The notes below the pieces were generated by a model. It had not been told where the DNA came from and searched no databases. It worked only from the letters and a program-made list of their open reading frames with translations. A stretch of DNA of 64,000 nt. Origin: Anaerolineae bacterium. Lineage in GTDB: Bacteria; Chloroflexota; Anaerolineae; CG2-30-64-16. The position numbers were made by a program, and so were the translations under genes. The DNA is taken from NCBI GenBank assembly GCA_040766655.1, contig JAXGQB010000013.1, positions 31 to 64,030 of the forward strand, given 5' to 3'. Positions 17,199 to 58,419 of this stretch are shown piece by piece (the stretch's first letter is position 1; every line of letters begins with the position of its first letter).

Positions 17199-18941
17199 AT
17201 GGTACAGAGAAAGATCACAGACGACCTGGATGCGCTCCTGCAGGTGCTGCCGCCGCGGGTCGAGGAGGCTGTGCGGGCGGCGAATCACGGAGACGATCTC
17301 CTGGAGATCGTGATGGACCTGGGCCGGGTGCCGGAAGCGCGGTTCGTGGACCACGAGCTGGTGTTGAGCCCGGAGGAGGTGACGCAGGAGGACCTGGACC
17401 ACGTGATCGTCCGCATCAGCGAGTTCACGGGGGATAACCGCGCGGGGATCGAGCGGACGCTGCACCGGATTTCGGCGATCCGCAACCGGCAGGGGAAGGT
17501 GATCGGGCTGACGTGCCGGGTGGGGCGGGCGGTCTACGGGGTGATCGAGATCGTCGAGGATATCATGAAGTCGGGGCACAGCATACTGCTGCTGGGCCGG
17601 CCCGGGGTGGGGAAGACGACGCTGCTGCGCGAGGCGGCGCGGGTGCTGAGCGAGAAACGCCGGGTGGTGGTGGTCGACACGTCGAACGAGATCGGGGGCG
17701 ATGGCGATATTCCGCACCCGGCGATCGGCCGCGCGCGGCGAATGCAGGTGGCGGATCCGGCGCTGCAGCACGAGGTGATGATCGAGGCGGTGGAGAATCA
17801 CATGCCGCAGGTGATCGTGATCGACGAGATCGGCCGGGAACAGGAGGCGGCGGCGGCGCGCACGATCGCGGAACGGGGTGTGCAGCTGGTGGGCACGGCG
17901 CACGGCAATAGCCTGGAGAACCTGCTGATCAACCCGACGCTGTCGGACCTGGTGGGCGGGATCGAGAGTGTGACGCTGAGCGATGAGGAGGCGCGGCGCC
18001 GCGGTACGCAGAAGGCGGTACTGGAGCGCCGTGCGCCGCCGACGTTCGATGTGCTGATCGAGCTGCAGGACCGGCAACGCCTGGCGGTGCATCCCAGCGT
18101 GGCGGCGGCGGTGGATGCGCTGCTGCGCGGCCGCATGCCGCAGCCGGAGATCCGGTGGGTAGATGAGGCGGGTGTGGTGCAGGTGGAGGCGCAGGTGCTG
18201 CCGGGGGCAGCCATGGGTAACGGCGATCGGGGATTGGGTAACGGGGGTGCTACCTTCGGAAGCCTGGGAGATTGGGGACGGGAGACTGGGGGTGCTACCT
18301 ACGGTGGCCGTGGTGCTGCCGGGGGCAGCCTTGCCTTCGGCGGCCGTGAGGAGCGGGGGACTGGGATGGGGCGGCTGCCGTTCGAGAGGCGGGCGGAGGG
18401 GGCTGCGCCTGGCGCAGCTGTGGTGTTGCCAGGGGCAGCCGTGCTACCGGGGTCAACCTCGCCTGCGGGAGCCGTGGGGAGGAAGGCGCTGCGGGTGTAT
18501 CCGTACGGGGTGGGACGCAGCCGGTTGGTGCAGGCGGCGCAGAATTTGGGCGTGCCGGTGACGGTGGTGGATGGGCTGGAGCAGGCGAACGCGGTGATTA
18601 CGCTGAAGAATTACTACCGCAAGCATCCGCAGCCGATCGCCGATGCCGAGCGTCGGCGCGTGCCGGTGTATGTGCTGCGCTCGAATACGGTGAACCAGAT
18701 GGAGGCGATCCTGGGGGATATCTTCGGGGTGCCGGTGGCGTACGAGGATCCGATGTCGCGGGCGGTGGCGGAGACGCAGGAGGCGATCCGGCGGGTGCTG
18801 GGCGGCTCGGCTGCGGAGGAACTGCCGCCGGCGGGGCCGGACGTGCGGCGGATGCAGCACGAGATGGCGCGCTCGGCGAACCTGATCTCGCACAGCTATG
18901 GCTCGGAGCCGCGGCGCCGGGTGCGGATCTTCCAGGGCTGA
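17199..18941 (+). CDS. Ycf45/SpoIIIAA-like AAA ATPase with C-terminal R3H domain
   Basis: N-terminal [18 protein letters not shown], Walker [17 protein letters not shown], Walker [13 protein letters not shown], and a C-terminal R3H-like [28 protein letters not shown]. It contains a Gly-rich repeat-derived insertion at 18205-18460. Confidence 0.75.
18205..18460. repeat. Degenerate GGGGAYT-type array and Gly-rich low-complexity block inside the ycf45-like gene
   Basis: ggtaacggcgatcggggattgggtaacggggg ... ggagattggggacgggagactggggg is translated as [31 protein letters not shown]. It lies between the ATPase core and the C-terminal domains. Confidence 0.6.
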
Positions 18942-19576
18942 TGATGCGCGAGCGGGGGGCGCTGTTCGTCAGCTTCGAGGGGCCGGAGGGCGGGGGCAAG
19001 ACGACGCAGATCCAGCTGCTGGCGCGCTGGCTGCGCGAGGCGGGCCGCGAGGTGATCACGACGCGCGAGCCGGGCGGGACGCGCATCGGGGATGCGATCC
19101 GGGCGGTGTTGCTGAACCCGCAGCACGTGGAGATGCGGCCGGAGGCGGAGATTTTGCTGTTTTCGGCCGCGCGGGCGCAGATCGTGGGGGAGGTGATCCG
19201 GCCGCACCTGGCCCGGGGGGGTGTGGTGCTGTGCGACCGGTTCGCGGATTCGACGCTGGCGTACCAGGGATATGGGCGGGAGCTGGACCTGGGGGTGCTG
19301 CGGCAGATCACGGGGTTCGCGACGGGGTGGCTGACGCCGGACCTGACGATCTGCCTGGATCTGCCGGTGGTCGACGGGCTCCGGCGCAAGCAGGGTGGTG
19401 ATCTGGCGGAATGGAATCGGATGGAGCGCGAAGAGCTGGCGTTTCACGAGCGGGTGCGGGCGGGGTACCTGGCGCTGGCGGCCGGGGAACCGGATCGTTG
19501 GTTCGTCGTGGATGCGCGCCAGCCGGTTGAGGCGGTGCAGGCGGAGATCAGGGAGCGTTTGGGGATTGGGGATTAG
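18941..19576 (+). CDS. tmk: Thymidylate kinase
   Basis: FVSFEGPEGGGKTTQ P-loop, TREPGGT and DRF motifs. The last residues (LGIGD) and the TAG stop lie inside the heptamer array. Confidence 0.9.
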   Translation: MMRERGALFVSFEGPEGGGKTTQIQLLARWLREAGREVITTREPGGTRIGDAIRAVLLNPQHVEMRPEAEILLFSAARAQIVGEVIRPHLARGGVVLCDRFADSTLAYQGYGRELDLGVLRQITGFATGWLTPDLTICLDLPVVDGLRRKQGGDLAEWNRMEREELAFHERVRAGYLALAAGEPDRWFVVDARQPVEAVQAEIRERLGIGD

Positions 19577-19735
19577 GGATTGGGGATTAGGGATTGGGGA
19601 TTAGGGATTAGGGATTAGGGATTGGGGATCAGGGACTGGGGATCAGGGACTGGGGATTAGGGATTGGGGATTGGGAGATCTGGGTTCCCAGTCCCCAGTC
19701 CCCAGCCCCCAGCCCCCAGTATCTGGTATCCGGTA
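19561..19735. repeat. Heptamer array (GGGGATT/GGGATTA/GGGGATC/GGGGACT, about 16 units) followed by the inverted array (CCCCAGT/CCCCAGC), forming a long imperfect hairpin
   Basis: ggggattggggattagggattggggattaggg...gggactggggatcagggactgggga (19561-19675) faces tcccagtccccagtccccagcccccagcccccagtatctggtatccgg (19686-19735). Confidence 0.95.
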
Positions 19736-19763
19736 ACCGACTGCACCAGGAGGATCCGACACT

Positions 19764-20090
19764 ATGAAGCTTCTCATGGCGATCGTCAGCAGTGATGACT
19801 CCCGCGATGTGCTCGACAAGCTGACCAAGGCGGGGTTTCGGGCGACGGTGATCAGCACGACGGGCGGGTTCCTGCGCGAGGGCAATACGACGTTTTTCCT
19901 GGGCGTGGATGATCACAAGATCGGCCAGGCGATCGAGATCCTGCAGAGTGTGTGCCGCAGGCGGACGCAATGGGTCTCGCCGCTGCCGACGCTGGAGGGC
20001 CCGGGCCTGGAGATGGCGGAGCCGATCGAGGTGAGCGTGGGGGGCGCGGTGGTGTTCGTGCTGAACGTGGAGCAGTTCGTCCAGGTGTGA
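19764..20090 (+). CDS. darA: Cyclic-di-AMP receptor DarA/YaaQ family PII-like protein (single domain)
   Basis: MKLLMAIVSSDDSRDVLDKLTKAGFRATVISTTGGFLREGNTTFFLGVDD. The position directly after tmk matches the tmk-yaaQ synteny known from Bacillus. Confidence 0.75.
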   Translation: MKLLMAIVSSDDSRDVLDKLTKAGFRATVISTTGGFLREGNTTFFLGVDDHKIGQAIEILQSVCRRRTQWVSPLPTLEGPGLEMAEPIEVSVGGAVVFVLNVEQFVQV

Positions 20091-20134
20091 GGGTCGCCTG
20101 CCAGCCGGCGGTTTCAACCGCAGGCTGGCAGGCG

Positions 20135-20160
20135 AAACCGGCGGCCCCGCCGCCGGTTTT
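20135..20160 (+). terminator. Terminator after darA, preceded by a second hairpin at 20095-20134
   Basis: aaaccggcgg-ccccg-ccgccggttt plus t. Upstream is cgcctgccagcc...ggctggcaggcg, a 12-bp stem. Confidence 0.6.
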
Positions 20161-21426: not shown

Positions 21427-22280
21427 CGGGGACTGGGGAACTGGGATCGGGGATTGGCGACCAGGGTCCTTCGACTGCGCTCCCTTCGGGAGCTCCGCTC
21501 AGGATGCCTGATGCTGGGGGATCGGGGACTGGCGACCAGGGGGCTCCGGCGCGGGGGGTGCGTCTGCCGCTGACGAAGCCGGTGATCACGTATGTGGTGC
21601 TGGGCGTGATCGTGGTGATCTTCGTGGCGGACACGATCATCGGCGCGGTGGCGGGCATGCCGATCCTGTCGTATCTCGGCGCGCAGATCAACAGCTGGGT
21701 GGGGGCGGGGGAATATTGGCGGCTGTTCTCGTCGATCTTTCTGCACGCGAGCCTGACGCACCTGGCGTTCAATGGCTGGGCGCTCTACAGTATCGGCCGC
21801 GATATCGAGGCGTTTTACGGCCATCGCTGGTTTGCGGCGATCTATTTTCTCGCCGGGCTGGCGGGCAGCCTGGCGTGGTATGTGCTGGGCCGGGACGGTG
21901 CGTCGGTGGGCGCGTCGGGCGCGATCTTCGGGCTGATCGGCGCCGAAGGGGCGTTCTTCCTGCGCAATCGGACGCTGTTCGGCAAGTTCGGCAGCCAGCG
22001 CCTGAGCAACCTGGCGGTCCTGATCGGGATCAACCTACTCTTTGGCTTTACGGTGCCCAACATCAACAACCATGCACACCTGGGTGGACTGGCGGCGGGC
22101 TTCCTCCTGGGATTTCTGCTGGCGCCGCGCTATGTGGTGCAGTGGTCGTACGAGGGGCTGGCGGCCGCGCCGCGGCTGGTGGACACGCAGTCGCGGGCCG
22201 CGCGAGCGGTGGTGGTGGCCGGTGCGGTGGTGGTGCTGGCGGTGCTGGTGGTGCTGGGGAACGCGCGGTGGGGGGCGTAG
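21423..22280 (+). CDS. Rhomboid family intramembrane serine protease
   Basis: WRLFSSIFLHASLTHLAFN, the catalytic GASGAIFGL and HLGGLAAGF motifs. ATG 21423 overlaps the gmk stop (ATGA). The first ~40 aa are encoded by repeat sequence. Confidence 0.85.
   Translation: MTGTGELGSGIGDQGPSTALPSGAPLRMPDAGGSGTGDQGAPARGVRLPLTKPVITYVVLGVIVVIFVADTIIGAVAGMPILSYLGAQINSWVGAGEYWRLFSSIFLHASLTHLAFNGWALYSIGRDIEAFYGHRWFAAIYFLAGLAGSLAWYVLGRDGASVGASGAIFGLIGAEGAFFLRNRTLFGKFGSQRLSNLAVLIGINLLFGFTVPNINNHAHLGGLAAGFLLGFLLAPRYVVQWSYEGLAAAPRLVDTQSRAARAVVVAGAVVVLAVLVVLGNARWGA
21428..21540. repeat. GGGGACT-type heptamers flanking a GTCCTTCGACTGCGC...GCTCCGCTCAGGATGCC hairpin module (within the rhomboid 5' end)
   Basis: ggggactggggaactgggatcggggattgg...ccttcgactgcgctcccttcgggagctccgctcaggatgcctgatgctgggggatcggggactgg. 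Confidence 0.9.
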
Positions 22281-22283
22281 GGC

Positions 22284-22313
22284 GGTTGAAGGTTGAAAGT
22301 TGAAGGTTGAAGG
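22284..22313. repeat. GGTTGAA heptamer array (intergenic)
   Basis: ggttgaaggttgaaagttgaaggttgaagg. Confidence 0.9.
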
Positions 22314-22346: not shown

Positions 22347-23288
22347 GTGATGGCTGATGGTGTGCGGCCGTCGGCGATTGCGGGGCGGTGGTATCCGGGG
22401 GATGCAGGGGCGCTGCGCCGCGAGGTGGCGGGGTTCCTGGCGCAGGTGGCGCCGGTGGAACTGCCCGGTCCGCTCCTGGGGCTGGTCGTGCCGCACGCTG
22501 GCTATGCCTACTCGGGGCCGACCGCGGCGCGGGCGTTCGCGCAGGTGCGCGGAAGCGGCTTCAAGCGGGTGGTGCTGCTGGGGCCGTTGCACCGCCCGAT
22601 CTGGGGCAGCCGGCTGGGGTCGTTCATGGCGCCCGACGCGACGGCGTACCGTACGCCCCTCGGCGATGTTCCCATCGATCGTGAGTTCCTGCAGGCGCTC
22701 GACGCACGCGTCGGACTGACGACCGTGCACGGGGATGAGGAGCACGCGCTCGAGATCGAGCTGCCGTTCCTGCAGGTGGCGCTGGGCGATTTCTCGCTGG
22801 TTCCGATCATGATGGGGGATCATATCGCCGATCCACACGCGGCGGAACGCGCGGGACGGCTGGCCGCGGCGGTGGCGGATGCTGGATACCAGAAGCTGGA
22901 TGCTGGTTCCCAGTCGCCAGTACCCAGTATCCAGTCTCCAGTCCCCAGTCCCCAGTCCCCAGTATCCGGCATCCAGTATCCGGATACGCTACTGGTGGCG
23001 AGCACGGACCTGAGCCATCTGGAGGATTATGGGGCGGTGCGGCGGACGGACGAGCGGCTGGTGGACCTGGTGAATGCGTTTGACGTCGATGGGCTGCGGG
23101 AGGCGCTGGTGCGCGGGACGGTGCAGGCCTGCGGCGCGATGGGCCTGGTGACGGTTCTGGAGGCGTGCCGGCTGCTGGGCGCGCGTGGGGCGTCGGTGCT
23201 GGAATATACGACGTCGGGCGATGTGACGGGGCAGCGGGCGCCGGGGGTGTATACGGTGGGCTACCTGGCCGCTGCGATCTACGGCTGA
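22347..23288 (+). CDS. MEMO1-family protein (AmmeMemoRadiSam system protein B)
   Basis: AGRWYPGD, VVPHAGYAYSGPTAA, HALEIELPFLQ and STDLSH motifs. It contains an in-frame heptamer insertion. Confidence 0.8.
   Translation: MMADGVRPSAIAGRWYPGDAGALRREVAGFLAQVAPVELPGPLLGLVVPHAGYAYSGPTAARAFAQVRGSGFKRVVLLGPLHRPIWGSRLGSFMAPDATAYRTPLGDVPIDREFLQALDARVGLTTVHGDEEHALEIELPFLQVALGDFSLVPIMMGDHIADPHAAERAGRLAAAVADAGYQKLDAGSQSPVPSIQSPVPSPQSPVSGIQYPDTLLVASTDLSHLEDYGAVRRTDERLVDLVNAFDVDGLREALVRGTVQACGAMGLVTVLEACRLLGARGASVLEYTTSGDVTGQRAPGVYTVGYLAAAIYG
22881..22986. repeat. CCAGTAT/CCCCAGT heptamer array inserted in frame in the Memo-like gene
   Basis: gctggataccagaagctggatgctggttcccagtcgccagtacccagtatccagtctccagtccccagtccccagtccccagtatccggcatccagtatccgg. 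Translated as GYQKLDAGSQSPVPSIQSPVPSPQSPVSGIQYPD. Confidence 0.95.
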
Positions 23289-23290: not shown

Positions 23291-26071
23291 ATGCTGTACG
23301 CGGATGTGTGTGTCAATACGCCGCTGGGCGCGCCGCGGCCGGTGGCCGCGGCCGGAGGCCCGGCCCCGGCCGATAATAGATTGAAGATTGAAGATGGAAG
23401 ATTAGGACCCCAGGCCCCTGTCCCCAATTCCCAGTCCCCGGTCTCCAGTCCCCAGTCCCTGATTCCCAGTCCCCAATCCTTGGCATCCAGTTCCGTCTTC
23501 ACGTACGAGGTGCCTGCGGCGCTGGCGGCGCGGGTGCAGCCGGGCCACCTGGTCTGGGTCCCGTTCCGCGGGCGGCGCATCCAGGGGGTGGTGCTGCGGC
23601 TGCACGATGCGGCGCCTGATTTTCAGACCCGGGAGTTGATCTCGTTGGTATGGGCACAGCCCGTGCTGAACGAGGCTCAGCTCGCGCTTGCGTACTGGAT
23701 CAGCGAGTATTATCTGGCCCCGCTCATCGAATCGCTGCGCCTGATGCTGCCGGTTGGGCTGTCGCAGCGCGGGCAGACTGTCTTTCGCCGCACGCCGGCG
23801 CCGGCGCCGGCCGGGCTTTCAGCCAAACAGGGCGAGCTGCTGGCGCGGATCGCGCGCGAGCCAGCGGATTGGGCGGAGATCACGGCGGAGGTGAAGCGCG
23901 TGACGCAGCGCAGGGATCTCGAGCCGCTGATCGAGATGGGGCTGGTGGTGCGGGATGTGGCGTTTCCCTCGCCGCCGCCGCGGCCGAAGACGGATCGGCG
24001 GGTGCGCCTGATCGCGGACGCGGCGGCGGTGGCCGCCGCGCTGGAGGGCCTGGGGCGCAAGTCGAAGAAGGGGGTCGCGCTGCGGTGGCTGGCCAGGCAT
24101 AAGGCGGTGCTGGATCTGCTGGCGGCGCACGCGGAGCCATTGTGGATCGGCCGGGTGTATGCGGAGACGGGCGCGACGTTGCAGACGCTGCGCGACCTGG
24201 AGGCGGCGGGGCTGGTCACGGTGGCGGAGGAGGTCATCTGGCGCGATCCGCTGGCGCACCATGAGTTCCAGCTCGATGTGAAACCTGTCCTGACGGATGA
24301 CCAGGCGGCGGTGTGGGGGACGGTGGCCGCGGCTGTGGCCGCGGGATTGAAGATTGAAGATGGAAGATTGAAGATGGGGGACGCGGGCGGCAGAGACGTA
24401 GCCTGCTACGTCTCTGAAAGTGCGCCGTTGGGGACCGATCCCCAGTCCTCCGATCCCCAGTCCCCAGTCGCCAGTATCCAGCATCCAGAATCCAGTCCCC
24501 AATCCCCTGCCACCGATCCCCAGTCCCCGGTTCCTGGCAGCCGGGCATTCTTGCTGCACGGGGTGACGGGGTCGGGGAAGACGGAGATTTATCTGCGCGC
24601 GATCGAGGTGTGCCTGGCGCAGGGGCGGCAGGCGGTGGTGCTGGTGCCGGAGATCGCGCTGACGCCGCAGACGATCCGCCGCTTTGCGGCGCGCTTCCCG
24701 GGCAGAGTGACGGTGTGGCACAGCGAGATGGGCGACGGCGAGCGCTTCGATGTGTGGCGCCGCGTGCGCACGAATCACCCGGCCGCGCAGGTGGTGGTGG
24801 GCTCGAGGTCGGCGCTGTTCCTGTCTTATCCGCAGCTCGGCCTGATCGCGGTGGACGAGGAGCACGAGCCGTCGTACAAGCAGGAGCGCACGCCGCGCTA
24901 TCACGCGCGGACGGTGGCGCTGGCACTGGGCCGGGCGACGGGTGCGACGGTGCTGCTGGGCAGCGCGACGCCTGCGCTGGAGACGTATTACGCGGCGCGG
25001 CGCGGGGAACTGACGCTGCTGACCCTGCCCCAGCGCATCAAGTCGGAGCTGCCCCCGGTGACGGTGGTGGATATGCGCCAGGAGCTGCGCATGGGCAACC
25101 GGAGCATGTTCAGCCGGCGCCTGTCGCAGGGGCTGCAACGGGTGCTGGCGAACGGGGAGCAGGCGATCCTCTACCTGAACCGGCGGGGCGCGGCGACGTT
25201 CGTGCTGTGCCGCGATTGCGGGTACGTGGCGACGTGCGCCAAGTGCGCCTCGCCGCTGACGTTTCACGGGGAGGGGGACCTGGTGTGCCACCAGTGCAGC
25301 CGGCGCTATCCCGCGCCCGTGGTGTGCCCGGAGTGCGGCAGCAAGCGCATCCGCTATTTCGGCGCGGGCACGGAGCGGGTCGAGGAGGCGGTGAAGCAAG
25401 AGTTTCCCACCGCGCGCACGCTGCGCTGGGATCGCGATGTGACGGGAGCCAAAGGCAGCCACGACGCGATCCTGACGACGTTCGTCAAGCACGAGGCCGA
25501 TGTGCTGATCGGCACGCAGATGATCGCGAAGGGGCTGGATCTGCCCCTAGTGACGCTGGTGGGCGCGATCGCAGCGGACGTGGGGCTGTTTCTGCCGGAT
25601 TTTCGCGCGAGCGAGCGGACGTTCCAGCTGCTGACGCAGGTGGCGGGGCGCGCGGGGCGCAGTGCGCTGGGCGGGGAGGTGGTGGTGCAGACGTATCACC
25701 CGGAGCACTATGCGATCCAGGCCGCGAGCGAGCACGATTACGAGGGTTTCTACCGCGAGGAGATGGCGTTTCGCCGACAGCAGGCGTATCCGCCGCTACG
25801 ACGGCTGGCGCGGCTGGTGTACCACCACGGGCAGCGCGCCCGGGTGCAGGCGGATGCGGAGGCGCTGGCGGCGACGCTGCGGGGGGAGATTGCGGCGGGA
25901 GGGCTGGCAGATACGGATCTGATCGGCCCGGCGCCGTGCTTCTTTGCGCGGCAGCGCGGGGAGTGGCGGTGGCAGGTGGTGGTGCGCGGCCCGGAGCCGG
26001 CCGCGCTGCTGCGGCGGGTGGCGCTGGGGCCGGGGTGGCGGGTGGATGTTGATCCGGTGGACTTGCTGTGA
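23291..26071 (+). CDS. priA: Primosomal protein N' (replication restart helicase PriA)
   Basis: ATG 23291 gives MLYADVCVNTPLG. Walker A LLHGVTGSGKTEIY and DEEHE are present. The Cys-rich zinc region is CRDCGYVATCAKCASPLTFH...CHQCS...CPECGS. The track ORF start 23165 is a spurious extension overlapping the preceding gene. Confidence 0.9.
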   Translation: MLYADVCVNTPLGAPRPVAAAGGPAPADNRLKIEDGRLGPQAPVPNSQSPVSSPQSLIPSPQSLASSSVFTYEVPAALAARVQPGHLVWVPFRGRRIQGVVLRLHDAAPDFQTRELISLVWAQPVLNEAQLALAYWISEYYLAPLIESLRLMLPVGLSQRGQTVFRRTPAPAPAGLSAKQGELLARIAREPADWAEITAEVKRVTQRRDLEPLIEMGLVVRDVAFPSPPPRPKTDRRVRLIADAAAVAAALEGLGRKSKKGVALRWLARHKAVLDLLAAHAEPLWIGRVYAETGATLQTLRDLEAAGLVTVAEEVIWRDPLAHHEFQLDVKPVLTDDQAAVWGTVAAAVAAGLKIEDGRLKMGDAGGRDVACYVSESAPLGTDPQSSDPQSPVASIQHPESSPQSPATDPQSPVPGSRAFLLHGVTGSGKTEIYLRAIEVCLAQGRQAVVLVPEIALTPQTIRRFAARFPGRVTVWHSEMGDGERFDVWRRVRTNHPAAQVVVGSRSALFLSYPQLGLIAVDEEHEPSYKQERTPRYHARTVALALGRATGATVLLGSATPALETYYAARRGELTLLTLPQRIKSELPPVTVVDMRQELRMGNRSMFSRRLSQGLQRVLANGEQAILYLNRRGAATFVLCRDCGYVATCAKCASPLTFHGEGDLVCHQCSRRYPAPVVCPECGSKRIRYFGAGTERVEEAVKQEFPTARTLRWDRDVTGAKGSHDAILTTFVKHEADVLIGTQMIAKGLDLPLVTLVGAIAADVGLFLPDFRASERTFQLLTQVAGRAGRSALGGEVVVQTYHPEHYAIQAASEHDYEGFYREEMAFRRQQAYPPLRRLARLVYHHGQRARVQADAEALAATLRGEIAAGGLADTDLIGPAPCFFARQRGEWRWQVVVRGPEPAALLRRVALGPGWRVDVDPVDLL
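23378..23492. repeat. GATTGAA and CCCCAGT arrays, in-frame insertion 1 in priA
   Basis: agattgaagattgaagatggaagatt...cccctgtccccaattcccagtccccggtctccagtccccagtccctgattcccagtccccaatcc. It lies between the conserved NTPLG and VFTYEVP segments. Confidence 0.9.
24345..24533. repeat. Composite element (GATTGAA array, AGAGACGTAGC hairpin, then CCCCAGT/CCAGTAT array), in-frame insertion 2 in priA
   Basis: gattgaagattgaagatggaagattgaagatgg...cagagacgtagcctgctacgtctctg...gatccccagtcctccgatccccagtccccagtcgccagtatccagcatccagaatccagtcccc. It ends ~20 nt before the Walker A coding segment. Confidence 0.95.
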
Positions 26072-26652
26072 TTGAAAATGGAAGATGGAAGATGGAAGAT
26101 AGAAGATGGAAGGTGCTGATCCTGGTCGTGGCGCTTGCGGGGGCGGGGTGGATCGCCGTCAACCGGGTGCCGGGGCCGGATGTGGCAGGGGCGAGTGCGG
26201 AGGGCCGGCTTACAGGCCAGCCCCTACCGGCTGCGCCGGCGGTGGGGCATCCCGCGCCTGAAATTCAGCTGGTCGACACGGCGGGGGAGCGGTTCGAGCT
26301 CTCCGCGCTGCGCGGGACGCCGGTGGTGCTCAATTTCTGGGCCACGTGGTGCCCGCCGTGCCGCGCGGAGATGCCGGAGCTGGAGGCCGCGCACGTGAGC
26401 CTGGCGGACCAGGTGGCGGTGGTGGGGGTGAACCAGGGGGAGTCGCAGGCCGAGGTGGCCGCGTTCGCCCAGGGCATCGGCGTCTCCTTCCCGCTGCCGC
26501 TGGACGAGCGCATGGACGCCAGCCGGACCTATGCGGTGCGCAGCCTGCCCACCACATTCTTCATCGACCGGTCGGGGATCATTCGCCGGATCCAGGTGGG
26601 TCCGCTGACCGAGGCGACGCTGGCGCAGAGCCTGCGCGCGATCTATCCCTGA
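26068..26652 (+). CDS. TlpA/ResA-family thiol-disulfide oxidoreductase (membrane-anchored thioredoxin fold)
   Basis: VVLNFWATWCPPCRAEMPELE contains the CxxC motif, and there is one N-terminal TM (WKVLILVVALAGAGWIAV). All candidate start codons (GTG 26068, ATG 26078, 26085, 26092) lie inside a heptamer array. Confidence 0.8.
   Translation: MIENGRWKMEDRRWKVLILVVALAGAGWIAVNRVPGPDVAGASAEGRLTGQPLPAAPAVGHPAPEIQLVDTAGERFELSALRGTPVVLNFWATWCPPCRAEMPELEAAHVSLADQVAVVGVNQGESQAEVAAFAQGIGVSFPLPLDERMDASRTYAVRSLPTTFFIDRSGIIRRIQVGPLTEATLAQSLRAIYP
26070..26112. repeat. GATGGAA/GATTGAA heptamer array spanning the priA stop and tlpA-like start
   Basis: gattgaaaatggaagatggaagatggaagatagaagatggaagg. Confidence 0.9.
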
Positions 26653-27456: not shown

Positions 27457-27531
27457 AGATGGAAGATTCCACGTTGTAGGTTGCAGGTTGCAGGTTGAAG
27501 GTTGTAGAGACGTAGCATGCTACGTCTCTAC
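27444..27531. repeat. Composite element: GATGGAA/GGTTGCA arrays plus the AGAGACGTAGC-ATGC-TACGTCTCT hairpin (intergenic, between convergent genes)
   Basis: gatggaagattgaagatggaagattcc...gtaggttgcaggttgcaggttgaaggttgtagagacgtagcatgctacgtctctac. Confidence 0.95.
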
Positions 27532-27545
27532 GTATTATGTACGTA

Positions 27546-32770: not shown

Positions 32771-32904
32771 GGCTCCGGGCCGCCCGGTGGGGCCGACCCA
32801 ATGGCGGCGGGTGTTTGCCGCAGAGGTCACAGAGGGCGCAGAGTGCTGGTCTGAGGCTGCGATGCCTCGACGGTCTCCGGGCGCTCTGTGCGATCTGCGG
32901 CGAG

Positions 32905-32993
32905 GGCGAGGAGACCTCGCCCCTACGCCAGGGCGAGGAGACCTCGCCCCTACACCTCGGCGAGGAGACCTCGCCCCTACATCTCGGCGAGGA
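32905..32993. repeat. Three and a half tandem 27-bp units, each a GGCGAGG-AGA-CCTCGCC hairpin followed by CCTAC
   Basis: Units start at 32905, 32932 and 32959. The last partial unit supplies the final codons and stop of the nitroreductase gene. Confidence 0.9.
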
Positions 32994-48413: not shown

Positions 48414-48522
48414 TTAGGGACTGGGCGTCGGATACTGGATACCGGATGCCCGTTCCCAGTGACCAGTATCCAGTTCCTAGTCCCCGGTCCCCAGTCTCCA
48501 GTATCCAGTATCTGGTATCCGG
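48414..48522. repeat. Intergenic inverted heptamer arrays (GGATACT vs CCAGTAT, plus CCCCGGT/CCCCAGT)
   Basis: tagggactgggcgtcggatactggataccggatgcccgttcccagtgaccagtatccagttcctagtccccggtccccagtctccagtatccagtatctggtatccgg. It abuts the stop codon of the pyrB-like gene. Confidence 0.95.
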
Positions 48523-49503
48523 TCAGTCCACCGCGCCCAGGACGAGCGCCAGCAGGGCCATGCGCATCACGACGCCGTTGAAGGCCTCCTGCCAGTAGCG
48601 GGACCAGCGCGTTATGTCCACATCGAGCGGAATCTCGTCCATGCGCGGCAGCGAGTGCAGCAGCATCGCGTCGGGCTTGGCCTTGCGCTCGAGCAGATCG
48701 CGCGTGATCTTGTAGGCAGCTGGCGTCAGGCTGTAGTCCGTCGCAGCTTCCTGGCGGGCCTTGGTGTAGTCCGGCTGGATCACCGGTTCGACGAGGATCA
48801 CGTCTGCTTCCGAAATGACCTGCTCGACGTGTTCGGCCTCCTTGAAGTCGAGCGAATACTGCTTGAAGTCGTTCTTGTACTCTTCGGGCATGCGCATATC
48901 GGGCGACCCGGGGAACAGGTCGTCCGGGCCGGGCGAGACGAACGTGATGGGGCAGTCGAACTGCGTGAGCGCGTAGCCCAGCGAGTGCATGGTGCGCATC
49001 CGCATGTCGCCCACGGCCACCCACTTCAGCCCATCGATCCGGTGCTTCTGCTGCAGGACGGTGTACAGATCGGTGAGGATCTGCGTCGGGTGTTCGCCCC
49101 AGCCATCGCCTCCGTTGAGGACCGGCACCGATGCCCATTTCGCGGCCTCGTGCGGTGCGCCCTTCTGGAAGTGACGCATCACGATCACGTCGCCGTAGAA
49201 CTCCAGCATCTTGACGGTATCTTTGATCGATTCCTGGTACCAGTCACCGGCCCGGGTCATCTTGGCGTCCGAGAAGCCGGTGACGTGGCCGCCCAGCCGG
49301 TGCATCGCGGCCTCGTGTGCCAGGCGGGTGCGGGTGGATGGCTGGTAGAAGGCAGTGACGAGAATCTTGTCCTTCAGCAGATCCAGGTTGCGCCGATCGC
49401 GGGCAACCGGTTCCAGCCGCGTCGCTACGTCGAAGACGCGGAAGAACTCCTGGCGTTCAAAGTCTTTGAGCGAAAGGATGTCACGACCAATGAAGCTGCG
49501 CAT
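48523..49503 (-). CDS. Aspartate carbamoyltransferase-like catalytic chain (PyrB family paralogue)
   Basis: PSTRTRLAHE, GEHPTQILTDL, VGDMRMRTMHSL and LHSLPRMDEI (ATCase-type LPR..EI). Confidence 0.75.
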   Translation of the reverse strand: MRSFIGRDILSLKDFERQEFFRVFDVATRLEPVARDRRNLDLLKDKILVTAFYQPSTRTRLAHEAAMHRLGGHVTGFSDAKMTRAGDWYQESIKDTVKMLEFYGDVIVMRHFQKGAPHEAAKWASVPVLNGGDGWGEHPTQILTDLYTVLQQKHRIDGLKWVAVGDMRMRTMHSLGYALTQFDCPITFVSPGPDDLFPGSPDMRMPEEYKNDFKQYSLDFKEAEHVEQVISEADVILVEPVIQPDYTKARQEAATDYSLTPAAYKITRDLLERKAKPDAMLLHSLPRMDEIPLDVDITRWSRYWQEAFNGVVMRMALLALVLGAVD

Positions 49504-50867: not shown

Positions 50868-50950
50868 CAATTGAAAATTGAAGATTGAAGATTGAAGATT
50901 GAAGAGCGCGACCCGTAATCTGTGATTTTCAATTTTCAATCTTCAATTCG
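50868..50950. repeat. Inverted GATTGAA arrays forming a long hairpin between cistrons
   Basis: caattgaaaattgaagattgaagattgaagattgaagag ... tgattttcaattttcaatcttcaattcgg. Confidence 0.95.
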
Positions 50951-50957: not shown

Positions 50958-53333
50958 CTAGACGTGCTTCAAACCCAGCTTGCAGGCGCGATCGGACCCC
51001 TTCTGCCGCAGGTCGTGGCCGATCAGGACGCGCTCCAGGTTCGCCGGGAGATCCTGCACGCGGCGGCCAGTGGCGTGGTAGATCGCGTTGACGATGGCCG
51101 GTGCGGTGGGCACCATTGCGGGTTCGGCCACGTTCTTGGCTCCGAACGGTCCGGGGCTGAAGTACTTCTCCACGCAGTGCCCGTCGATATCGGGAACGTC
51201 CACCGCGGTGGGAATGAGATACTCGTCGAAGTTGGTGGCCTGCATGTAGCCCTGGTCGAACTCCACCCGCTCCATGAGCGCGTAGCCGAGCCCCTGGGTG
51301 ATCCCGCCGTAGATCTGCCCCAGGATGCCCTGCGGGAAGATCACGGTGCCGGTGTTGTGTGCGGCCCAGAGGCCGGTGACGTCCACCTTGCCCGTGCCCG
51401 TATCGACGGTCACCTCCGCCACCTGCGCGCCGTAGTGGTACGCGAAGTAGGGTTTGCCCGTGCCGTCCTCCATCGACCAATGGATCGAGGGCGCATCCCA
51501 CCGGCCGCGTGCAGACAGCGTCAGGCCCATCTCGCGCGCGTGATTTGCCACGTCGTCGAAGCTGGCCGGCTCCTCCTGCGGCCCGATGAAGAGCTCGCCG
51601 TCGCGCAGCACCTGCACCAGGCTGCACCCGAAGAGGTTGGCCGCGGCGTGGTGCAGCAGGCTATTGAGGCGTTCCGAGGTGATGCGCATTGCGTTGCCGC
51701 CCATCACAGTGGCGCGCGAGGCCACCGTGGGGCCGCTGCCGAGAGCCGTATCGGTGTCCGGCCGGTGCATGTGGAAGCGTTCCGGCTTGAGCCCGAGCAC
51801 CTCGGCCGCGATGAGCGTGAAGACCGTGCGCGAGCCCGGTCCGTAGTCGGTCAGGCCCGAGGTGAAGGTGATCGAGTTGTCGTCGTTGACCTGCATCGTG
51901 CTGACCGCGAAGTCGGCGCCCTCGGCGCCCAGGGAGATGCCGTGGAAACAACAGGCCACGCCGATGCCCCGGCGCACGGCCGCGCCCGGGTTGGGCGTGC
52001 CCAGCGTGGGCCGGCGGTTGGCCTCGCCGTACTCACGTCGTTTCCGATCCCAATCGGAGGCACGGCGCACGTGCTCCAGGCATTCGACCAGCGCGACGTC
52101 GTCGCCCAGGGGCTGGCCGTGCGCGGTCTCGTCGCCGGGCCGCAGGCAGTTCATCAGCCGCATGTCGATCGGGTCGATGTCCAGGCGATGTGCCAGGTCG
52201 TCGATGGCCTGCTCGATGCAGGCCGTGACCTCCGTGTTGCCGAAGCCGCGGAACGCGCCGGTGTACCCGTTGTTCGTATATGCCACGTGGGTGTCAACGT
52301 GGCACGCGTCATAGCGATACGAGCCCATGGCGTGAATGTTGCCGCGCCACGCGACGAACGGCGTGATCGCGGAGTACGCGCCGCTGTCCACCAGCAGGTT
52401 GACCTTGCTGGCGCGCAGTTTGCCGCTGCGGTCGGCCCCGAGCCGGATGTGCACCCGCATGGGATTGCGCTTGTAGGAGAAGATCATCGACTCTTCGCGG
52501 CTGAAGGTCATCTGGACGGGGCGGCCGGCGAGCAGCGCCAGCCTGGCCACCTGGCCGGTGGTCTGATAAATCTGGTCATCCTTGCCGCCGAACGCGCCAC
52601 CGACGGGCGGCTGGATCACGCGCACGTTCTCCTCGCCCAGGCCCAGGACACGGCACAGGTTGCCGCGATCGTTGAACGGGCTCTGGCTGGGCGAATAGAC
52701 CGTGACGCCGGTGCTGTCGGGCCAGGGAACGGCCAGCGCGGCTTCGGTCTCGATGTAGGCGTGCTCCTGGTGCGCGGTGCTATAGTGCTCGTCCAGCACG
52801 ACCTCGGCCGATGCCAGGATCGGGTCCGGGTCGCCGTTGCGGACGATGTGCTTCACCAGCAGGTTGCCGCGCGGCTCGGTCGGTGAATCCCAGGGCTGCT
52901 GGCCGACGAGGGGTGCGTCCGGCTTCAGCGCCTCTTCCGGGTCGAAGACGCCGGGCAGCGGATCGAGCTCCCAGATGATCGCGTCCAGGCCGGCTGCAAG
53001 CGCCTCTTCGGTCTCGGCAGCGACGGCCGCCATCGCTTCGCCCACGTAGCGGACGTGCTCGTGGGCCAGCATGTACATGTCCTGGACCGGATAGCCGAAG
53101 TTGCCGTGGTTGACGAAATCCTCGCCCGTGATGGCTGCCTTCACCCCCGGCACCTGCAGGGCCGGCGTCACGTCCAGGCGGACGATGCGTGCGTGCGGCA
53201 CGTCGCTGCGCAGGCAGCGCGCGACCAGGGTGCCCGGCAGACGATAGTCCGCCGTGTACTTGGCCGTTCCCAGGACCTTTTCCAGCGCGTCGACGCGGCG
53301 CGCCGGCTTGCCGACATACTTCAACTCAGCCAT
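50958..53333 (-). CDS. Xanthine dehydrogenase family molybdopterin-binding subunit (set 2)
   Basis: MAELKYVGKPARRVDALEKVLGTAKYTADY, GGAFGGKDD, AFRGFGNTE and GQIYGGITQGLGYALME. Confidence 0.85.
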   Translation of the reverse strand: MAELKYVGKPARRVDALEKVLGTAKYTADYRLPGTLVARCLRSDVPHARIVRLDVTPALQVPGVKAAITGEDFVNHGNFGYPVQDMYMLAHEHVRYVGEAMAAVAAETEEALAAGLDAIIWELDPLPGVFDPEEALKPDAPLVGQQPWDSPTEPRGNLLVKHIVRNGDPDPILASAEVVLDEHYSTAHQEHAYIETEAALAVPWPDSTGVTVYSPSQSPFNDRGNLCRVLGLGEENVRVIQPPVGGAFGGKDDQIYQTTGQVARLALLAGRPVQMTFSREESMIFSYKRNPMRVHIRLGADRSGKLRASKVNLLVDSGAYSAITPFVAWRGNIHAMGSYRYDACHVDTHVAYTNNGYTGAFRGFGNTEVTACIEQAIDDLAHRLDIDPIDMRLMNCLRPGDETAHGQPLGDDVALVECLEHVRRASDWDRKRREYGEANRRPTLGTPNPGAAVRRGIGVACCFHGISLGAEGADFAVSTMQVNDDNSITFTSGLTDYGPGSRTVFTLIAAEVLGLKPERFHMHRPDTDTALGSGPTVASRATVMGGNAMRITSERLNSLLHHAAANLFGCSLVQVLRDGELFIGPQEEPASFDDVANHAREMGLTLSARGRWDAPSIHWSMEDGTGKPYFAYHYGAQVAEVTVDTGTGKVDVTGLWAAHNTGTVIFPQGILGQIYGGITQGLGYALMERVEFDQGYMQATNFDEYLIPTAVDVPDIDGHCVEKYFSPGPFGAKNVAEPAMVPTAPAIVNAIYHATGRRVQDLPANLERVLIGHDLRQKGSDRACKLGLKHV

Positions 53334-53859
53334 GGGTGACCTCCTGGGAACGGGGACTGGGGATCGGGGATCGGGTATCGGTCGCCCCGGCGCCCTTGCG
53401 GCGATCTGCCGCCGTGACCTCGATAGCGTCGACGATCTGCTGATAGCCGGTGCAGCGGCACAGGTTGCCGGCGATGGCCTCGCGAATCTCGGCCCGGTCG
53501 GGCGTCAGGGTTTTCGCCAGCAGCGCCTCGCCTGCCAGGATCATGCCGGGGATGCAGTAGCCGCATTGCACCGCACCGTAATCGATGAAGTTCTGCTGCA
53601 GGTCGTTCGGTCCTCCGTCTGGTCCGCGGATCCCTTCGATGGTGACGACCTCGCGGCCGCCGGCCTGCGGCGCCAGAACCATGCACGAGTTCACCAGGCG
53701 GCCGTCCAGCAACACGCTGCACGCGCCGCACTCGCCGACGCCACATCCTTCCTTGGTCCCGGTGAGGTTCAGGTGATCGCGCAGGAGATGGAGCAGGCTG
53801 ATGTCAGCCGGAGCCTCGACACTGATCGGATGGCCGTTGAGCGTGAATTCGATTTTCAT
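53326..53859 (-). CDS. [2Fe-2S]-binding subunit (set 2)
   Basis: MKIEFTLNGHPI, GCGVGECGACSV, CGYCIPG and LCRCTGY. The C-terminal tail is encoded by a heptamer array and overlaps the Mo-subunit start. Confidence 0.9.
   Translation of the reverse strand: MKIEFTLNGHPISVEAPADISLLHLLRDHLNLTGTKEGCGVGECGACSVLLDGRLVNSCMVLAPQAGGREVVTIEGIRGPDGGPNDLQQNFIDYGAVQCGYCIPGMILAGEALLAKTLTPDRAEIREAIAGNLCRCTGYQQIVDAIEVTAADRRKGAGATDTRSPIPSPRSQEVTHG
53350..53381. repeat. GGGGACT/GGGGATC heptamers in the 3' end of the FeS gene
   Basis: acggggactggggatcggggatcgggtatcgg. Confidence 0.85.
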
Positions 53860-57175: not shown

Positions 57176-57213
57176 CTTTCACTCCTGGCCTGGCGGCGCC
57201 CCGTCGGACGCGT

Positions 57214-57333
57214 TGGTTGCAGGTTCTAAGGTTGAAAGTTGCAGGTTGTGTGCTCGGAGGCGCTCCTCGGTTGAAGGTTGAACGTCTGCTACAGAACTTT
57301 CAACCTTCAACCTGCAACCTGCAACCTTCAACC
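57214..57333. repeat. Inverted GGTTGCA/GGTTGAA arrays forming a long intercistronic hairpin
   Basis: ggttgcaggttctaaggttgaaagttgcaggttg...ggttgaaggttgaacg...ctttcaaccttcaacctgcaacctgcaaccttcaacc. Confidence 0.95.
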
Positions 57334-57352
57334 GGTGACTGGTCGTTCGGGT

Positions 57353-58354
57353 TTAGGGTTCGACCTTGATGGCCCCGCTCTTGATGCCCTCGATCGCGGC
57401 CTCGGCGGCCTGCTTGACATCGTCGGGCAGCTGATATGCCGAATTGTAGGCGATCTTCAGCCCGCCGTTCTTCAGCTCCAGAACGAAAGCTTCTCCGCCC
57501 AACTTGCCGTCCTTGCGGTTGGCAATCATCTGCTTCAGGATCCCGGTCCAGTCATACTGCTGGCTGGCGACCACGTTCTCCGGGGCGAGCGTAGCCTGGT
57601 CCTGCTGCGTGCCGAACCACATCACGCTGCCCGCTTCCTTCGCCGCGCCGACGGAGCCAACGACCGACTGAGAGGAGCCGGTCAACACATCCGCGCCGGC
57701 TGCGATGTGGGTCTTGGCGGCCTCGGTCATCAGCGCGACGTCCGAGAACGAGCCGGTCCAGGTCTTCGCAAGCTTGAGGCCGGGATCGGTGGCAGTCACG
57801 CCCTGCACGAAGCCGTCGACGTACGTCTTGGCATCGCCCGCTTCCACGGGGCCGGTCACGCCGATTACCTTGGTCTTGGAGAGCATCGCGGCCATGACGC
57901 CGTTGACGTACCCGCCCTGCTCCGCCGCGGCCGTGTACGCGTAGACGTTAGGCATGCCGAACGTATTCACCTCGGTGCCCCAGGCGAAGGTCGTCTTGGG
58001 GAAGTCCGGGGCGATCTCCTGGACCGACGAGCCGTACTGCGAGCCGTGGCCGAGCACGATGTCGAAGCCCTGGCTGGCATAATCGCGGATGGCAGCTGCC
58101 GCGTCCGCCACCTTGAACATGTTCTCCGAGTACTTCAGCTCGACTGCGGCCTCGCCGCCCATCTCGGCCTGGATGCTCTTCAGTGCATCCCACATCGATT
58201 GGCTGAAGGCCAGGTCGGTCGTGGCGCTGGGCATCACCACTGCGATTCGTAGCGGCTTGTCGCCGGTCTGTCCACCGGTGGTCGCTGCGCCACCGCCGCA
58301 TGCGGTGAGCAGTGCGAGCACCATCACGAGAGCGAACAACGTGCGAAACTTCAT
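57353..58354 (-). CDS. BMP-family (PnrA/Med-like) ABC substrate-binding lipoprotein, likely purine/nucleoside-binding
   Basis: ATG 58354 gives MKFRTLFALVMVLALLTAC, a lipobox. A AVVMPSATTDLAFSQS type BMP fold pattern follows. The track start 58474 reads through a heptamer array. Confidence 0.8.
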   Translation of the reverse strand: MKFRTLFALVMVLALLTACGGGAATTGGQTGDKPLRIAVVMPSATTDLAFSQSMWDALKSIQAEMGGEAAVELKYSENMFKVADAAAAIRDYASQGFDIVLGHGSQYGSSVQEIAPDFPKTTFAWGTEVNTFGMPNVYAYTAAAEQGGYVNGVMAAMLSKTKVIGVTGPVEAGDAKTYVDGFVQGVTATDPGLKLAKTWTGSFSDVALMTEAAKTHIAAGADVLTGSSQSVVGSVGAAKEAGSVMWFGTQQDQATLAPENVVASQQYDWTGILKQMIANRKDGKLGGEAFVLELKNGGLKIAYNSAYQLPDDVKQAAEAAIEGIKSGAIKVEP

Positions 58355-58370
58355 TCTGTGTTCTCCTTTT

Positions 58371-58419
58371 CTGGATACTGGTTGCTGGATACTAGATACT
58401 GGATACTGATCACTGGATG
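58371..58419. repeat. GGATACT heptamer array (intercistronic)
   Basis: ctggatactggttgctggatactagatactggatactgatcactggatg. Confidence 0.9.

Follow-up and report, generated by a model that had tools for sequence, protein, structure and literature searches.

In-frame heptamer arrays and hairpin cores in housekeeping genes of an uncultured Anaerolineae bacterium

Genes of the locus and the repeat blocks within them

The DNA analysed here (the window; 64 kb, positions 31 to 64,030 of contig JAXGQB010000013.1, Anaerolineae assembly GCA_040766655.1) carries arrays of 7-nt repeat units and short hairpin cores, which lie in spacers and, as in-frame blocks, within open reading frames (ORFs) of conserved housekeeping genes. 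All counts given for the window refer to this 64-kb sample unless stated; its GC content is 62-74%. Gene order was determined by ORF calling guided by GC content at third codon positions (GC3) together with Pfam. On the plus strand it runs from a SpoIIIAA/R3H ATPase gene through tmk, a c-di-AMP receptor, a zinc-ribbon gene, gmk, rhomboid, Memo, PriA, an AhpC-like redoxin and Lgt; on the minus strand follow YqeC-MobA, RsmF, GGT, a nitroreductase and, beyond it, the Mo subunit of a xanthine-dehydrogenase (XDH)-type enzyme, a fused FAD/2Fe-2S (FAD/FeS) subunit and further metabolic genes. The gene names given in an earlier note on this DNA are right by Pfam. The best named homologues are proteins of Anaerolineae, Chloroflexi or Caldilineae metagenome-assembled genomes (MAGs), and the host of the heptamer arrays is not cyanobacterial.

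Two syntenic relatives, L012 (a 1.92-Mb contig) and L013, were recovered by searching for contigs encoding window proteins. Their PriA is 64% identical to that of the window by BLASTP (77% over aligned columns), and a period scan of both loci revealed no period-7 arrays. L004 and L139 are strains 98.6% and 99.8% identical to the window, L001 is a relative with approximately 89% identity, and L011 is the orthologous locus of the GTDB species representative, an uncultured Anaerolineales bacterium, with a FAD/FeS orthologue of 90% identity. Blocks were mapped against the L012/L013 orthologues, PDB homologues (2nlz and 1rm6) and the species-level relative L011.

In total 17 in-frame blocks were mapped (approximately 1,680 nt, or 8% of the interval 17.2-37.7 kb), distributed over 11 of the 16 genes of this interval, and all 11 host ORFs stay uninterrupted. 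The blocks in ATPase, Memo, PriA (2), Lgt, YqeC (2) and RsmF (4) were defined against L012/L013 orthologues, those in GGT (2) and XDH against PDB homologues, and that in FAD/FeS against L011. The alignment with repeat-poor orthologues that the earlier note had proposed shows them to be in-frame, lineage-specific insertions between conserved sequence blocks. The mapped and probable blocks are, in order of position:

18243-18362, plus strand: ATPase block in the SpoIIIAA/R3H (Ycf45-like) gene, 40 aa, G-rich; degenerate GGGGAYT units and a short hairpin.
21430-21545, plus strand: rhomboid block, probable N-terminus; GGGGAYT units around a 45-nt TCCTTCGAC...CTCAGGA core.
22875-22986, plus strand: Memo block, approximately 30-36 aa; ATGCTGG/ATACCAG units, then CCCAGTx and CCAGTAT units; hairpin, fold z -6.
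23330-23494, plus strand: PriA block 1, approximately 50 aa; GC hairpin, then GATTGAA units, then CCCCAGT units.
24343-24538, plus strand: PriA block 2, approximately 65 aa, directly before Walker A; GATTGAA units, AGAGACGTAGC palindrome, CCCCAGT/CCAGYAT units.
27202-27245, plus strand: Lgt block, 13 aa (RLKIADGKSKM); GATTGAA-type units; missing in L013.
27843-27890, minus strand: small YqeC-MobA block in the MobA domain, 16 aa, GTAG-REP-like; missing in L013; aligns with the GGT and FAD/FeS copies.
28299-28444, minus strand: YqeC block, 44 aa after NKSD; GATTGAA units split by the 18-nt palindrome GGCCAACTTCGTTGGCCC, then CCCCRGT units; missing in L013.
29296-29346, minus strand: RsmF block PSTFNLQPSIAAP, from GGTTGMA units; missing in L013.
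29527-29622, minus strand: RsmF block, GATTGAA units and 45-nt core, read as HPERSGGGAAAQPKDNLQS; defined against L013.
29675-29727, minus strand: RsmF block, GATTGAA/GGTTG units and a variant of the 18-nt palindrome (GGCCAGCTTGGCTGGCCC).
29895-29920, minus strand: small RsmF block, SQSSIF, from GATTGAA units.
30694-30742, minus strand: fifth RsmF block, GATKGAA units and 18-nt palindrome; probable N-terminal extension, start codon unproven.
31283-31345, minus strand: GGT block 2, LDLGPSVGADPGPAGAGHAGS; GTAGGGGCCGAC REP-like family; unaligned against PDB 2nlz.
31409-31516, minus strand: GGT block 1, approximately 35 aa directly before HPNALAPRKRPYHT; GTAGGGGCCGAC REP-like family.
34564-34792, minus strand: XDH Mo-subunit block, approximately 76 aa between MoCoBD_1 and MoCoBD_2; GATTGAA, GGTATCC and CCCCRGT units.
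36622-36687, minus strand: FAD/FeS block, 22 aa, GTAG-REP-like, in the linker that joins the FAD domain to the 2Fe-2S domain.

The ATPase block, with Pfam domains on either side, is missing in the L013 orthologue. As the earlier note had claimed, one block lies in the Memo ORF and two lie in that of PriA: the Memo block is found neither in L012 and L013 nor in more than 30 homologues, and both PriA blocks are missing in orthologues, block 1 in those at 64-66% identity. GGT has, relative to PDB 2nlz, two extra segments flanking HPNALAPRKRPYHT; relative to PDB 1rm6, the XDH Mo subunit has approximately 90 extra residues between MoCoBD_1 and MoCoBD_2, and its block holds two copies of a 45-nt core in a 63-nt tandem duplication. 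A second XDH-type Mo subunit of the window (50958-53333) shows the ordinary 26-aa spacing of these two domains and no block, and serves as an internal control for the insertion at 34564-34792. The FAD/FeS block is a clean 66-nt presence/absence difference against L011.

Two of the earlier assignments stood in part. The rhomboid block is probably coding, with an unproven start codon, because the ATGA overlap of the gmk stop and the rhomboid start is kept in L001, L012 and L013; against its place in the ORF, one gene caller starts rhomboid 3' of the element. Between the window and L001 this block differs by an in-frame indel of 6+39 nt. In RsmF, for which five blocks had been named, the four internal ones were confirmed against L013, whereas the fifth lies only in a probable N-terminal extension, proposed because L013 shares conserved residues ahead of the ATG that had been called as the start. 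The arrays at 37673-37795, previously also counted as in-ORF, belong to a 5' leader: FAD_binding_5 begins at residue 44 of the adjoining long ORF, and a GAGGA ribosome-binding site with ATG is found at 37657.

In-ORF blocks are confined to 17-37 kb. Over the 64 kb sampled, arrays are absent from 1-18 kb, lie mostly in ORFs at 18-37 kb and are all intergenic beyond 38 kb. Peptides diagnostic of the blocks are SPVPSIQSPVPSPQSPVSGIQYPD (Memo), DVACYVSESAPLGTDPQSSDPQSPVASIQHPESSPQSPATDPQSPVPGSR (PriA), HPERSAAAAAAQSK (XDH) and NLQSWANEVGPIFNLQSR (YqeC).

Further features of these genes and of the flanking DNA were noted. PriA of the window lineage and of P0069 (23291-26071; alignment columns approximately 282-374) lacks a segment of approximately 75 aa that is present in most orthologues at 60-66% identity, a domain-sized deletion with no relation to the repeats. 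The window has two genes for c-di-AMP receptors (PF06153), one at 8779-9621 with two such stretches, adjoining TrkH/TrkA, and a single-domain one at 19764-20090 between tmk and gmk. A cobalamin riboswitch (RF00174, 49 bits), the only Rfam match of the window, lies at 674-789, upstream of a cluster with CbiQ-like and ABC-transporter ATPase genes.

Heptamer families, hairpin cores and spacer elements

Between 19.5 and 58.4 kb, the period-7 arrays detected by Tandem Repeats Finder number in the dozens, and a period scan revealed 14-18 arrays at period 7 compared with 0-1 at periods 5, 6, 8, 9, 10 and 11. Dimers of the units were counted as two-unit patterns with at most 2 mismatches, and the expectation was taken from dinucleotide shuffles. 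GATTGAAGATTGAA dimers were observed 31 times (0.11 expected), CCCCAGTCCCCAGT dimers, representing the GGGGAYT/CCCCAGT unit, 33 times (0.74 expected) and CCAGTATCCAGTAT dimers 22 times (0.12 expected). These counts and the period-7 excess bear out the three recurring heptamer families of the earlier note, and the four hairpin cores it named all recur as well: GGGCCAAC-TTCG-TTGGCCC with 2 exact copies and 1 variant, the 24-nt palindrome AGAGACGTAGC-NN-GCTACGTCTCT with 2 copies, the core of approximately 45 nt TCCTTCGACTGCGC...GCTCCGCTCAGGA with 4 copies (21467-21504, 29555-29596, 34576-34617 and 34639-34680), and GTAGGGGCCGAC with 3 exact copies and 1 carrying one mismatch, all 4 inside ORFs.

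In 5 of 5 copies the 18-nt palindrome GGCCAACTTCGTTGGCCC is inserted between G5 and A6 of the unit (GRTKG|AA), which adds exactly 6 codons. The 45-nt core directly follows GATTG on its 3' side in 3 of 8 copies and CCGG/CAGG in the other 5. Whatever the orientation of the genes, the plus strand holds all 4 of the window's 45-nt cores and 28 of its 31 GATTGAA dimers. In the GTAGGGGCCGAC copies, GGGGCCGAC pairs with downstream GTCGGCCC (as read from the sequence of the GGT upstream copy), which places GTAG beside a palindromic stem. The GGT and FAD/FeS blocks, described at first as heptamer elements, turned out to belong, with the 16-aa YqeC-MobA block, to this GTAG-tagged, 15-nt-periodic GGGCCGAC family.

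Outside the blocks, the following elements were found in spacers and at gene edges (no strand assigned):

19559-19729: inverted array pair at the 3' end of tmk, whose stop codon it includes; approximately 16 GGGGATT units followed by units of CCCCAGT and of CCAGTAT.
22284-22313: array in the rhomboid/Memo spacer, GGTTGAA units; TGA in all three frames.
26070-26112: array at the PriA/AhpC junction, GATGGAA units; gives the AhpC ATG and first residues (MEDRRWK); whole-element indel hotspot.
27444-27550: spacer between the convergent Lgt and YqeC genes; arrays of GATGGAA and of GGTTGCA, an 11-nt duplication and the other copy of the AGAGACGTAGC palindrome.
32903-32993: tandem repeat in the GGT/nitroreductase spacer, 27-nt unit (GGGCGAGGAGACCTCGCCCCTACNNC), 3.4 copies; L004 has one more.
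37673-37795: intergenic 5'-leader region, GGGGACT units, CCAGCAT units and a 21-nt duplicated hairpin.
48429-48524: intergenic inverted arrays, GGATACY units facing CCAGTAT/CCCCRGT; fold z -3.3 and -6.0.
50869-50948: intergenic inverted GATTGAA arrays, near-perfect long hairpin; fold z -9.4.
53346-53381: intergenic array of GGGGATC units, upstream of the second XDH-type gene.
57215-57333: intergenic inverted GGTTGMA arrays; fold z -7 to -8.
58371-58418: intergenic ATACTGG array.

At the first of these sites tmk (18941-19729) ends in a repeat-coded C-terminus (LGIGD...), and its product measures 211 aa here and 232 aa in L004. AhpC of relatives without the GATGGAA array has a similar native N-terminus, MDRLRWN, and the array may for this reason have grown out of, or replaced, native AhpC coding sequence. 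The 27-nt unit at 32903-32993 is a GGGCGAGG-AGAC-CTCGCCCC hairpin.

In spacers, the elements consist of heptamer arrays in inverted orientation, whose predicted folds are far more stable than those of shuffled sequences (z -5 to -9); among the in-ORF blocks a good fold was obtained for Memo (z -6) and PriA (z -3 to -4). An RNA-level hairpin as a universal feature of the blocks is ruled out by the YqeC, XDH and RsmF blocks, which fold at shuffle level. Rfam gave no match on the elements at the gathering threshold in the window, nor in an E-value scan of 20 loci with the 45-nt core.

The 45-nt core extends well beyond this organism. By an exact-flank scan of metagenome contigs it was found on at least 118 contigs of 44-70% GC (outside the window, loci L014-L131). 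The core matches listed comprise 121 copies, in which 107 different inner sequences were distinguished; nearly all of these form a hairpin with pairing kept (mean minimum free energy -9.0, compared with -4.5 for shuffles); fewer than 10% of the listed contigs have a heptamer array of any kind, and none has one from the window's unit families. The core, TCCTTCGACTGCGC-[variable hairpin]-GCTCCGCTCAGGA(TGACA), is often accompanied by an inverted partial copy (GCAGTCGAAGGA) upstream. A literature search by the sequence string of the core matched only unrelated primers and no paper citing it. Widespread in metagenomes, with a covarying inner hairpin and not in Rfam, the 45-nt core merits its own description. 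Its occurrence without the window's heptamer families indicates that the single 'mini-element' of the earlier note is in fact a nest of independent repeat kinds. A genome-contig scan with the 18-nt palindrome detected modular elements in one Anaerolineales MAG only, the other five matches being ordinary terminators that share the hairpin. A protein-database query with the concatenated block peptides returned only the four host proteins themselves, because E-values over 5.8 billion sequences are too harsh for short low-complexity segments.

Frame conservation, turnover and translation

Indels between relatives were compared inside and outside ORFs. All 13 in-ORF indels are multiples of 3 (3, 3, 3, 6, 6, 6, 15, 15, 33, 39, 54, 66 and 78 nt), for which the chance is (1/3)^13, and most of them are not multiples of 7; spacer indels measure 4, 5, 73 and 94 nt. 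The statement that the elements never break the frame inside ORFs is supported. Read from the sequence, CCCCAGT, GGGGATT, CCAGTAT and the complement of GATTGAA are stop-free in any frame. GATTGAA itself contains TGA; in each of the 3 arrays within plus-strand genes, GATGGAA stands at the unit that would place this TGA in frame, and spacer arrays keep TGA in all frames.

These data bear on the fate of the blocks in expression. Excision of untranslated blocks from the RNA as intervening sequences, or their bypass by the ribosome, for which the byp elements of yeast mitochondria and T4 gene 60 are precedents, would fit the strong hairpins of some blocks (Memo, PriA) and the G-tract runs that some put in the mRNA sense of YqeC and XDH. 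Removal would leave no selection on length or stops, yet the indels keep to multiples of 3 and the in-frame TGA is replaced, which argues against both processes; moreover, the blocks match no Rfam family, and neither conserved take-off/landing codons nor splice-like boundaries were seen. We therefore hold this explanation to be very improbable. From frame and stop statistics, the blocks appear to be translated as disordered peptides.

The same cores are read differently in different hosts. The 18-nt palindrome gives SWANEVGP in YqeC and GQRSWPN in RsmF; the 45-nt core is read from one strand in XDH and RsmF (HPERS..AQSKD) and from the other in rhomboid (GPSTALPSGAPLRMP); and the 24-nt palindrome, coding in PriA (GRDVACYVS), also occurs in the Lgt/YqeC spacer. 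Reading in different frames and on both strands, along with the presence of the cores in spacers, shows that the driver acts at the DNA level and is filtered by translation.

Comparison with relatives further shows that the content of the sites turns over rapidly while the sites stay fixed. At the Memo site, relatives at 84-87% identity, and L001, have GATTGAA-coded RLKIEDGK in place of the CCCAGTx units. PriA block 1 of L001 contains the 45-nt core in place of the GATTGAA part, and PriA block 2 differs in frame by 15+33 nt from that of L001 and is shorter by 78 nt in L139. The XDH block of L011 occupies the same site with different modules, to which two copies of the 18-nt palindrome are added. 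The PriA/AhpC spacer is the fourth such site: a 94-nt element is present in L004, L005 and L132, missing in the window, L134 and L135, and segregates among strains with identical Memo, and L001 carries another, unrelated 73-nt element. Between L004 and the window, non-repeat indels amount to 1 nt in the spacer at 14611 and 3 nt at 34552, and repeat indels to 7, 21 and 14 nt in the tmk 3' array, one 27-nt unit and the 94-nt element; there are no others. The presence/absence polymorphism that the earlier note had suggested looking for is thus found in L001, L004, L011 and L139, and block length and presence, which vary among strains more than 99% identical, may serve as strain-level markers.

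We also evaluated whether the blocks might be kept for useful peptides (flexible linkers, interaction or phase-separation motifs), with the DNA repeats being secondary. Blocks do persist at the same sites in relatives at 84-90% identity, and several lie in inter-domain linkers. Against such a role, the DNA units concerned also make up spacer elements, and from host to host they are read on either strand and in more than one frame; the peptide is exchanged for an unrelated one at the same site (Memo SPVPSIQ... for RLKIEDGK), presence and length of blocks vary among nearly identical strains, and repeat-free relatives do without them. Selection for the peptides is accordingly an improbable primary cause.

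Repeats are a classic source of mis-assembly, so that mis-joins or errors of binning had also to be considered. The contig L133 (GCA_040769485.1, JAXGKZ010000027.1) has, in the region equivalent to 17.5-20.1 kb, 28 indels of 1-4 nt, 27 of them deletions, which fragment ATPase and tmk; these small indels are restricted to the start of the GC-skew island described below and look like assembly or consensus errors. The same blocks, by contrast, lie at the same sites in approximately 20 independent assemblies from ENA, NCBI, JGI and Logan, from different projects and assemblers, with ordinary divergence around them and intact flanking ORFs; the exact Memo protein with its block is encoded on 22 contigs from these four sources, and PriA with both blocks on several more. 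This rules out assembly artefacts, which the earlier note had named as a possible refutation, and we give an artefactual origin of the blocks next to no credence. For annotators and MAG binners it follows that block-bearing proteins are neither frameshifted nor chimeric.

Structure prediction, also proposed earlier to locate the insertions, placed the Memo block in the only disordered loop of the protein. The AlphaFold2 model (38 homologues; pLDDT 88.6, pTM 0.88; TM 0.80-0.81 to MEMO1 crystal structures) shows residues 181-212, the block, as the sole low-confidence stretch, predicted to lack secondary structure and to form a surface loop between a helix (164-180) and a strand (213-218). In the PriA model both blocks are the longest low-confidence stretches. 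The XDH and FAD/FeS blocks lie in inter-domain linkers. The loops and linkers of PriA, Memo, Lgt, RsmF, GGT and XDH type represent a natural experiment in the tolerance of 10-76 extra disordered residues.

Origin of the repeats and comparison with known systems

A lineage-specific bloom of nested, non-coding DNA repeats in uncultured Anaerolineales-type Chloroflexota is in our judgement the probable explanation of these data. A first layer would consist of heptanucleotide microsatellites with related units (GGGGAYT, i.e. CCCCAGT; GATTGAA/GGTTGMA/GATGGAA; ATACTGG/ATGCTGG), which would grow, shrink and mutate fast, most simply by slipped-strand mispairing and inter-array recombination. A second layer would be small palindromic units (the 18-nt and 24-nt palindromes, the core of approximately 45 nt and, separately, the GTAG-tagged REP-like family) copied into or beside the arrays. 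In spacers, inverted array pairs would fold as long hairpins and might have side effects as terminators or RNA stabilisers. Inside genes, a block would survive only if it kept the frame, brought no stops and met a tolerant loop or linker, and would then be transcribed and translated (PQSPVPS, RLKIEDG, GDWGLGI); as most unit sequences are stop-free in all six frames, they should be unusually easy to tolerate. Once a permissive site had been seeded, its content would turn over in place by gain, loss, duplication and replacement of modules.

Several observations weigh against this explanation. Translation of the blocks is deduced from frame and stop statistics only, the YqeC, XDH and RsmF blocks fold overall no better than shuffles, and the PriA AlphaFold2 model (12-sequence alignment; pLDDT 58) is too poor to place the blocks. 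By Pfam the window has no transposase gene, and a tblastn search of 907 kb of locus DNA with IS200/IS608 TnpA gave no match, which is a weak negative. No target-site duplication is visible at the 94-nt indel, so that copying could be recombinational rather than transpositional. Finally, a purely random genome-wide spread does not explain why in-ORF blocks are confined to 17-37 kb and arrays are missing from 1-18 kb, a distribution that coincides with the GC-skew island described below.

Some of these points touch on an alternative origin, in which the cores are single-strand-DNA transposons of the REP/PATE kind (REP, repetitive extragenic palindrome), inserted without duplication 3' of GATTG by an HUH Y1 (RAYT/TnpA-like) transposase encoded elsewhere; the heptamer arrays would be landing pads, and orientation would follow the replication fork. 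The position of the 18-nt palindrome 3' of GRTKG in 5/5 copies and of the 45-nt core 3' of GATTG in 3/8 agrees with this, as do the missing target duplication at the 94-nt indel, the placement of 4/4 cores and 28/31 GATTGAA dimers on the plus strand, which bears a G/T-rich leading-strand signature, and the presence of a GTAG-tagged REP-like family, GTAG REPs being reported in Chloroflexi (PMC3733652). Set against it are the failure to find a Y1 transposase in the window or in the 907 kb of locus DNA, which include 118 core-carrying loci, the 5/8 45-nt cores that follow CCGG/CAGG and not GATTG, and an orientation sample that is small and partly non-independent. Since no HUH/RAYT enzyme was found, single-strand-DNA insertion is kept as a rival that is possible yet rather unlikely.

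The leading-strand signature belongs to a GC-skew island of 16.7 kb (approximately 17.0-33.7 kb), in which the GC skew of the plus strand is 0.15-0.28, compared with 0-0.1 in the flanks. Synonymous sites of the island are G- and T-rich on the plus strand whatever the orientation of the gene: GC3 skew is +0.27 to +0.50 in plus-strand genes and, on the coding strand, -0.34 to -0.60 in minus-strand genes, and AT3 behaves alike. The edges of the island lie at gene borders. L001, L004 and the first kilobase of L011 share the island, and the L012/L013 orthologues lack it. It overlaps the zone of dense in-ORF blocks. Genes of the island match L012/L013 at protein identities not below those of genes in the flanks, which lends no support to recombinational import of the island. 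As to ongoing strand-biased mutation, 98 polarised substitutions (25 C>T, 29 G>A) show no clear asymmetry at such a sample size. The island, for which we found no explanation, merits its own description. A bolder idea, to which we attach little probability, is that active single-strand-DNA micro-transposition on heptamer landing pads remodels loops of essential proteins such as PriA, with the skew island as a second symptom of the same local process. If so, prolonged single-strand exposure at forks stalled by hairpin or G-quadruplex repeats would lie behind the island, and repeat invasion, local strand-biased mutation and protein-loop evolution would be joined in one mechanism.

Returning to the repeat bloom that we favour, its components can be compared with repeats known from other bacteria. 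CCCCAGT is reportedly the STRR1 of Mazel and co-workers (1990). GGGGA(C/T)T heptamer arrays, with the complement CCCCAGT, are a characterised, G-quadruplex-capable repeat of Nostoc PCC 7120, 32% of which is intragenic (Rehm et al. 2015, PMC4692102). The window's arrays share with these cyanobacterial STRRs the identical unit, the range from 2 to more than 16 units at many loci, the strong variation in length and the capacity for G-quadruplexes. They differ in that the host is a high-GC (62-74%) Chloroflexota, that dominant GATTGAA-type and ATACTGG-type families are added and arrays are paired with hairpin cores, and that at 17-37 kb most copies lie in conserved housekeeping ORFs; frame conservation, mapped here, and translated products are not analysed in the cyanobacterial STRR papers. 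The STRR-type GGGGAYT repeat is thus not a cyanobacterial peculiarity, being found in high-GC Chloroflexota with nested hairpin units.

Small dispersed repeats (SDRs) are said, after Elhai and colleagues (2008, Genome Res 18:1484), to be very small hairpin repeats (approximately 20-27 nt), inserted precisely in a conserved short context that includes other repeats. By this description the 18-nt palindrome resembles them in occupying one fixed point of the heptamer unit; unlike SDRs, the units of the window are carried into ORFs in frame, 18 nt equalling 6 codons. SDRs are reported only in Nostocaceae (PMC5861425).

The earlier note had likened the elements to the Rickettsia palindromic elements (RPEs), a likeness that is apt as to consequence, i.e. 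in-frame insertion with host ORFs left intact. RPEs reportedly are single palindromic elements of 100-150 bp in defined families of an obligate intracellular alpha-proteobacterium (Ogata and colleagues, 2000), and they are said to share with the window in-frame insertion into conserved functional genes, location in surface loops and the use of one element in different frames. Unlike RPEs, the blocks are mosaics of 7-nt arrays and 18-45-nt cores, several of which do not fold as one palindrome; locally they are much denser (17 blocks per 20 kb), and the sites keep their place while the modules in them change.

REPs with a GTAG tag are reported from Chloroflexi, REP clusters in ORFs of other bacteria encode 43-82 aa, and genes for replication and repair are among those that contain REPs (Di Nocera et al. 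2013, PMC3733652). The GTAGGGGCCGAC family likewise has a GTAG tag followed by a palindromic stem. REPs are mostly extragenic, whereas all 4 window copies lie in ORFs; no RAYT gene was seen in the window, and the heptamer arrays have no REP counterpart. From the same phylum, (GATAGRA)n of Chloroflexus aurantiacus has been described only as satellites (Subirana and Messeguer 2019, PMC6749651). These too are heptamer-derived tandem repeats, with a unit resembling GATGGAA/GATAGAA, but hairpin cores, in-frame colonisation and population turnover are not reported for them, and the window has all three. With respect to miniature inverted-repeat transposable elements, inverted heptamer arrays are present, but the 94-nt presence/absence site has no target-site duplication.

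The view that this architecture is undescribed therefore needs correction: its parts are known from Nostoc arrays, SDRs and GTAG REPs, and the 45-nt core is not specific to the organism. What is new is the occurrence in this phylum, the joining of heptamer arrays to nested cores, the high local density of blocks in housekeeping genes, PriA among them (approximately 8% of a 20-kb stretch and 11 of 16 genes, with ORFs intact), and the turnover, traced to population level, of the modules that occupy fixed sites.

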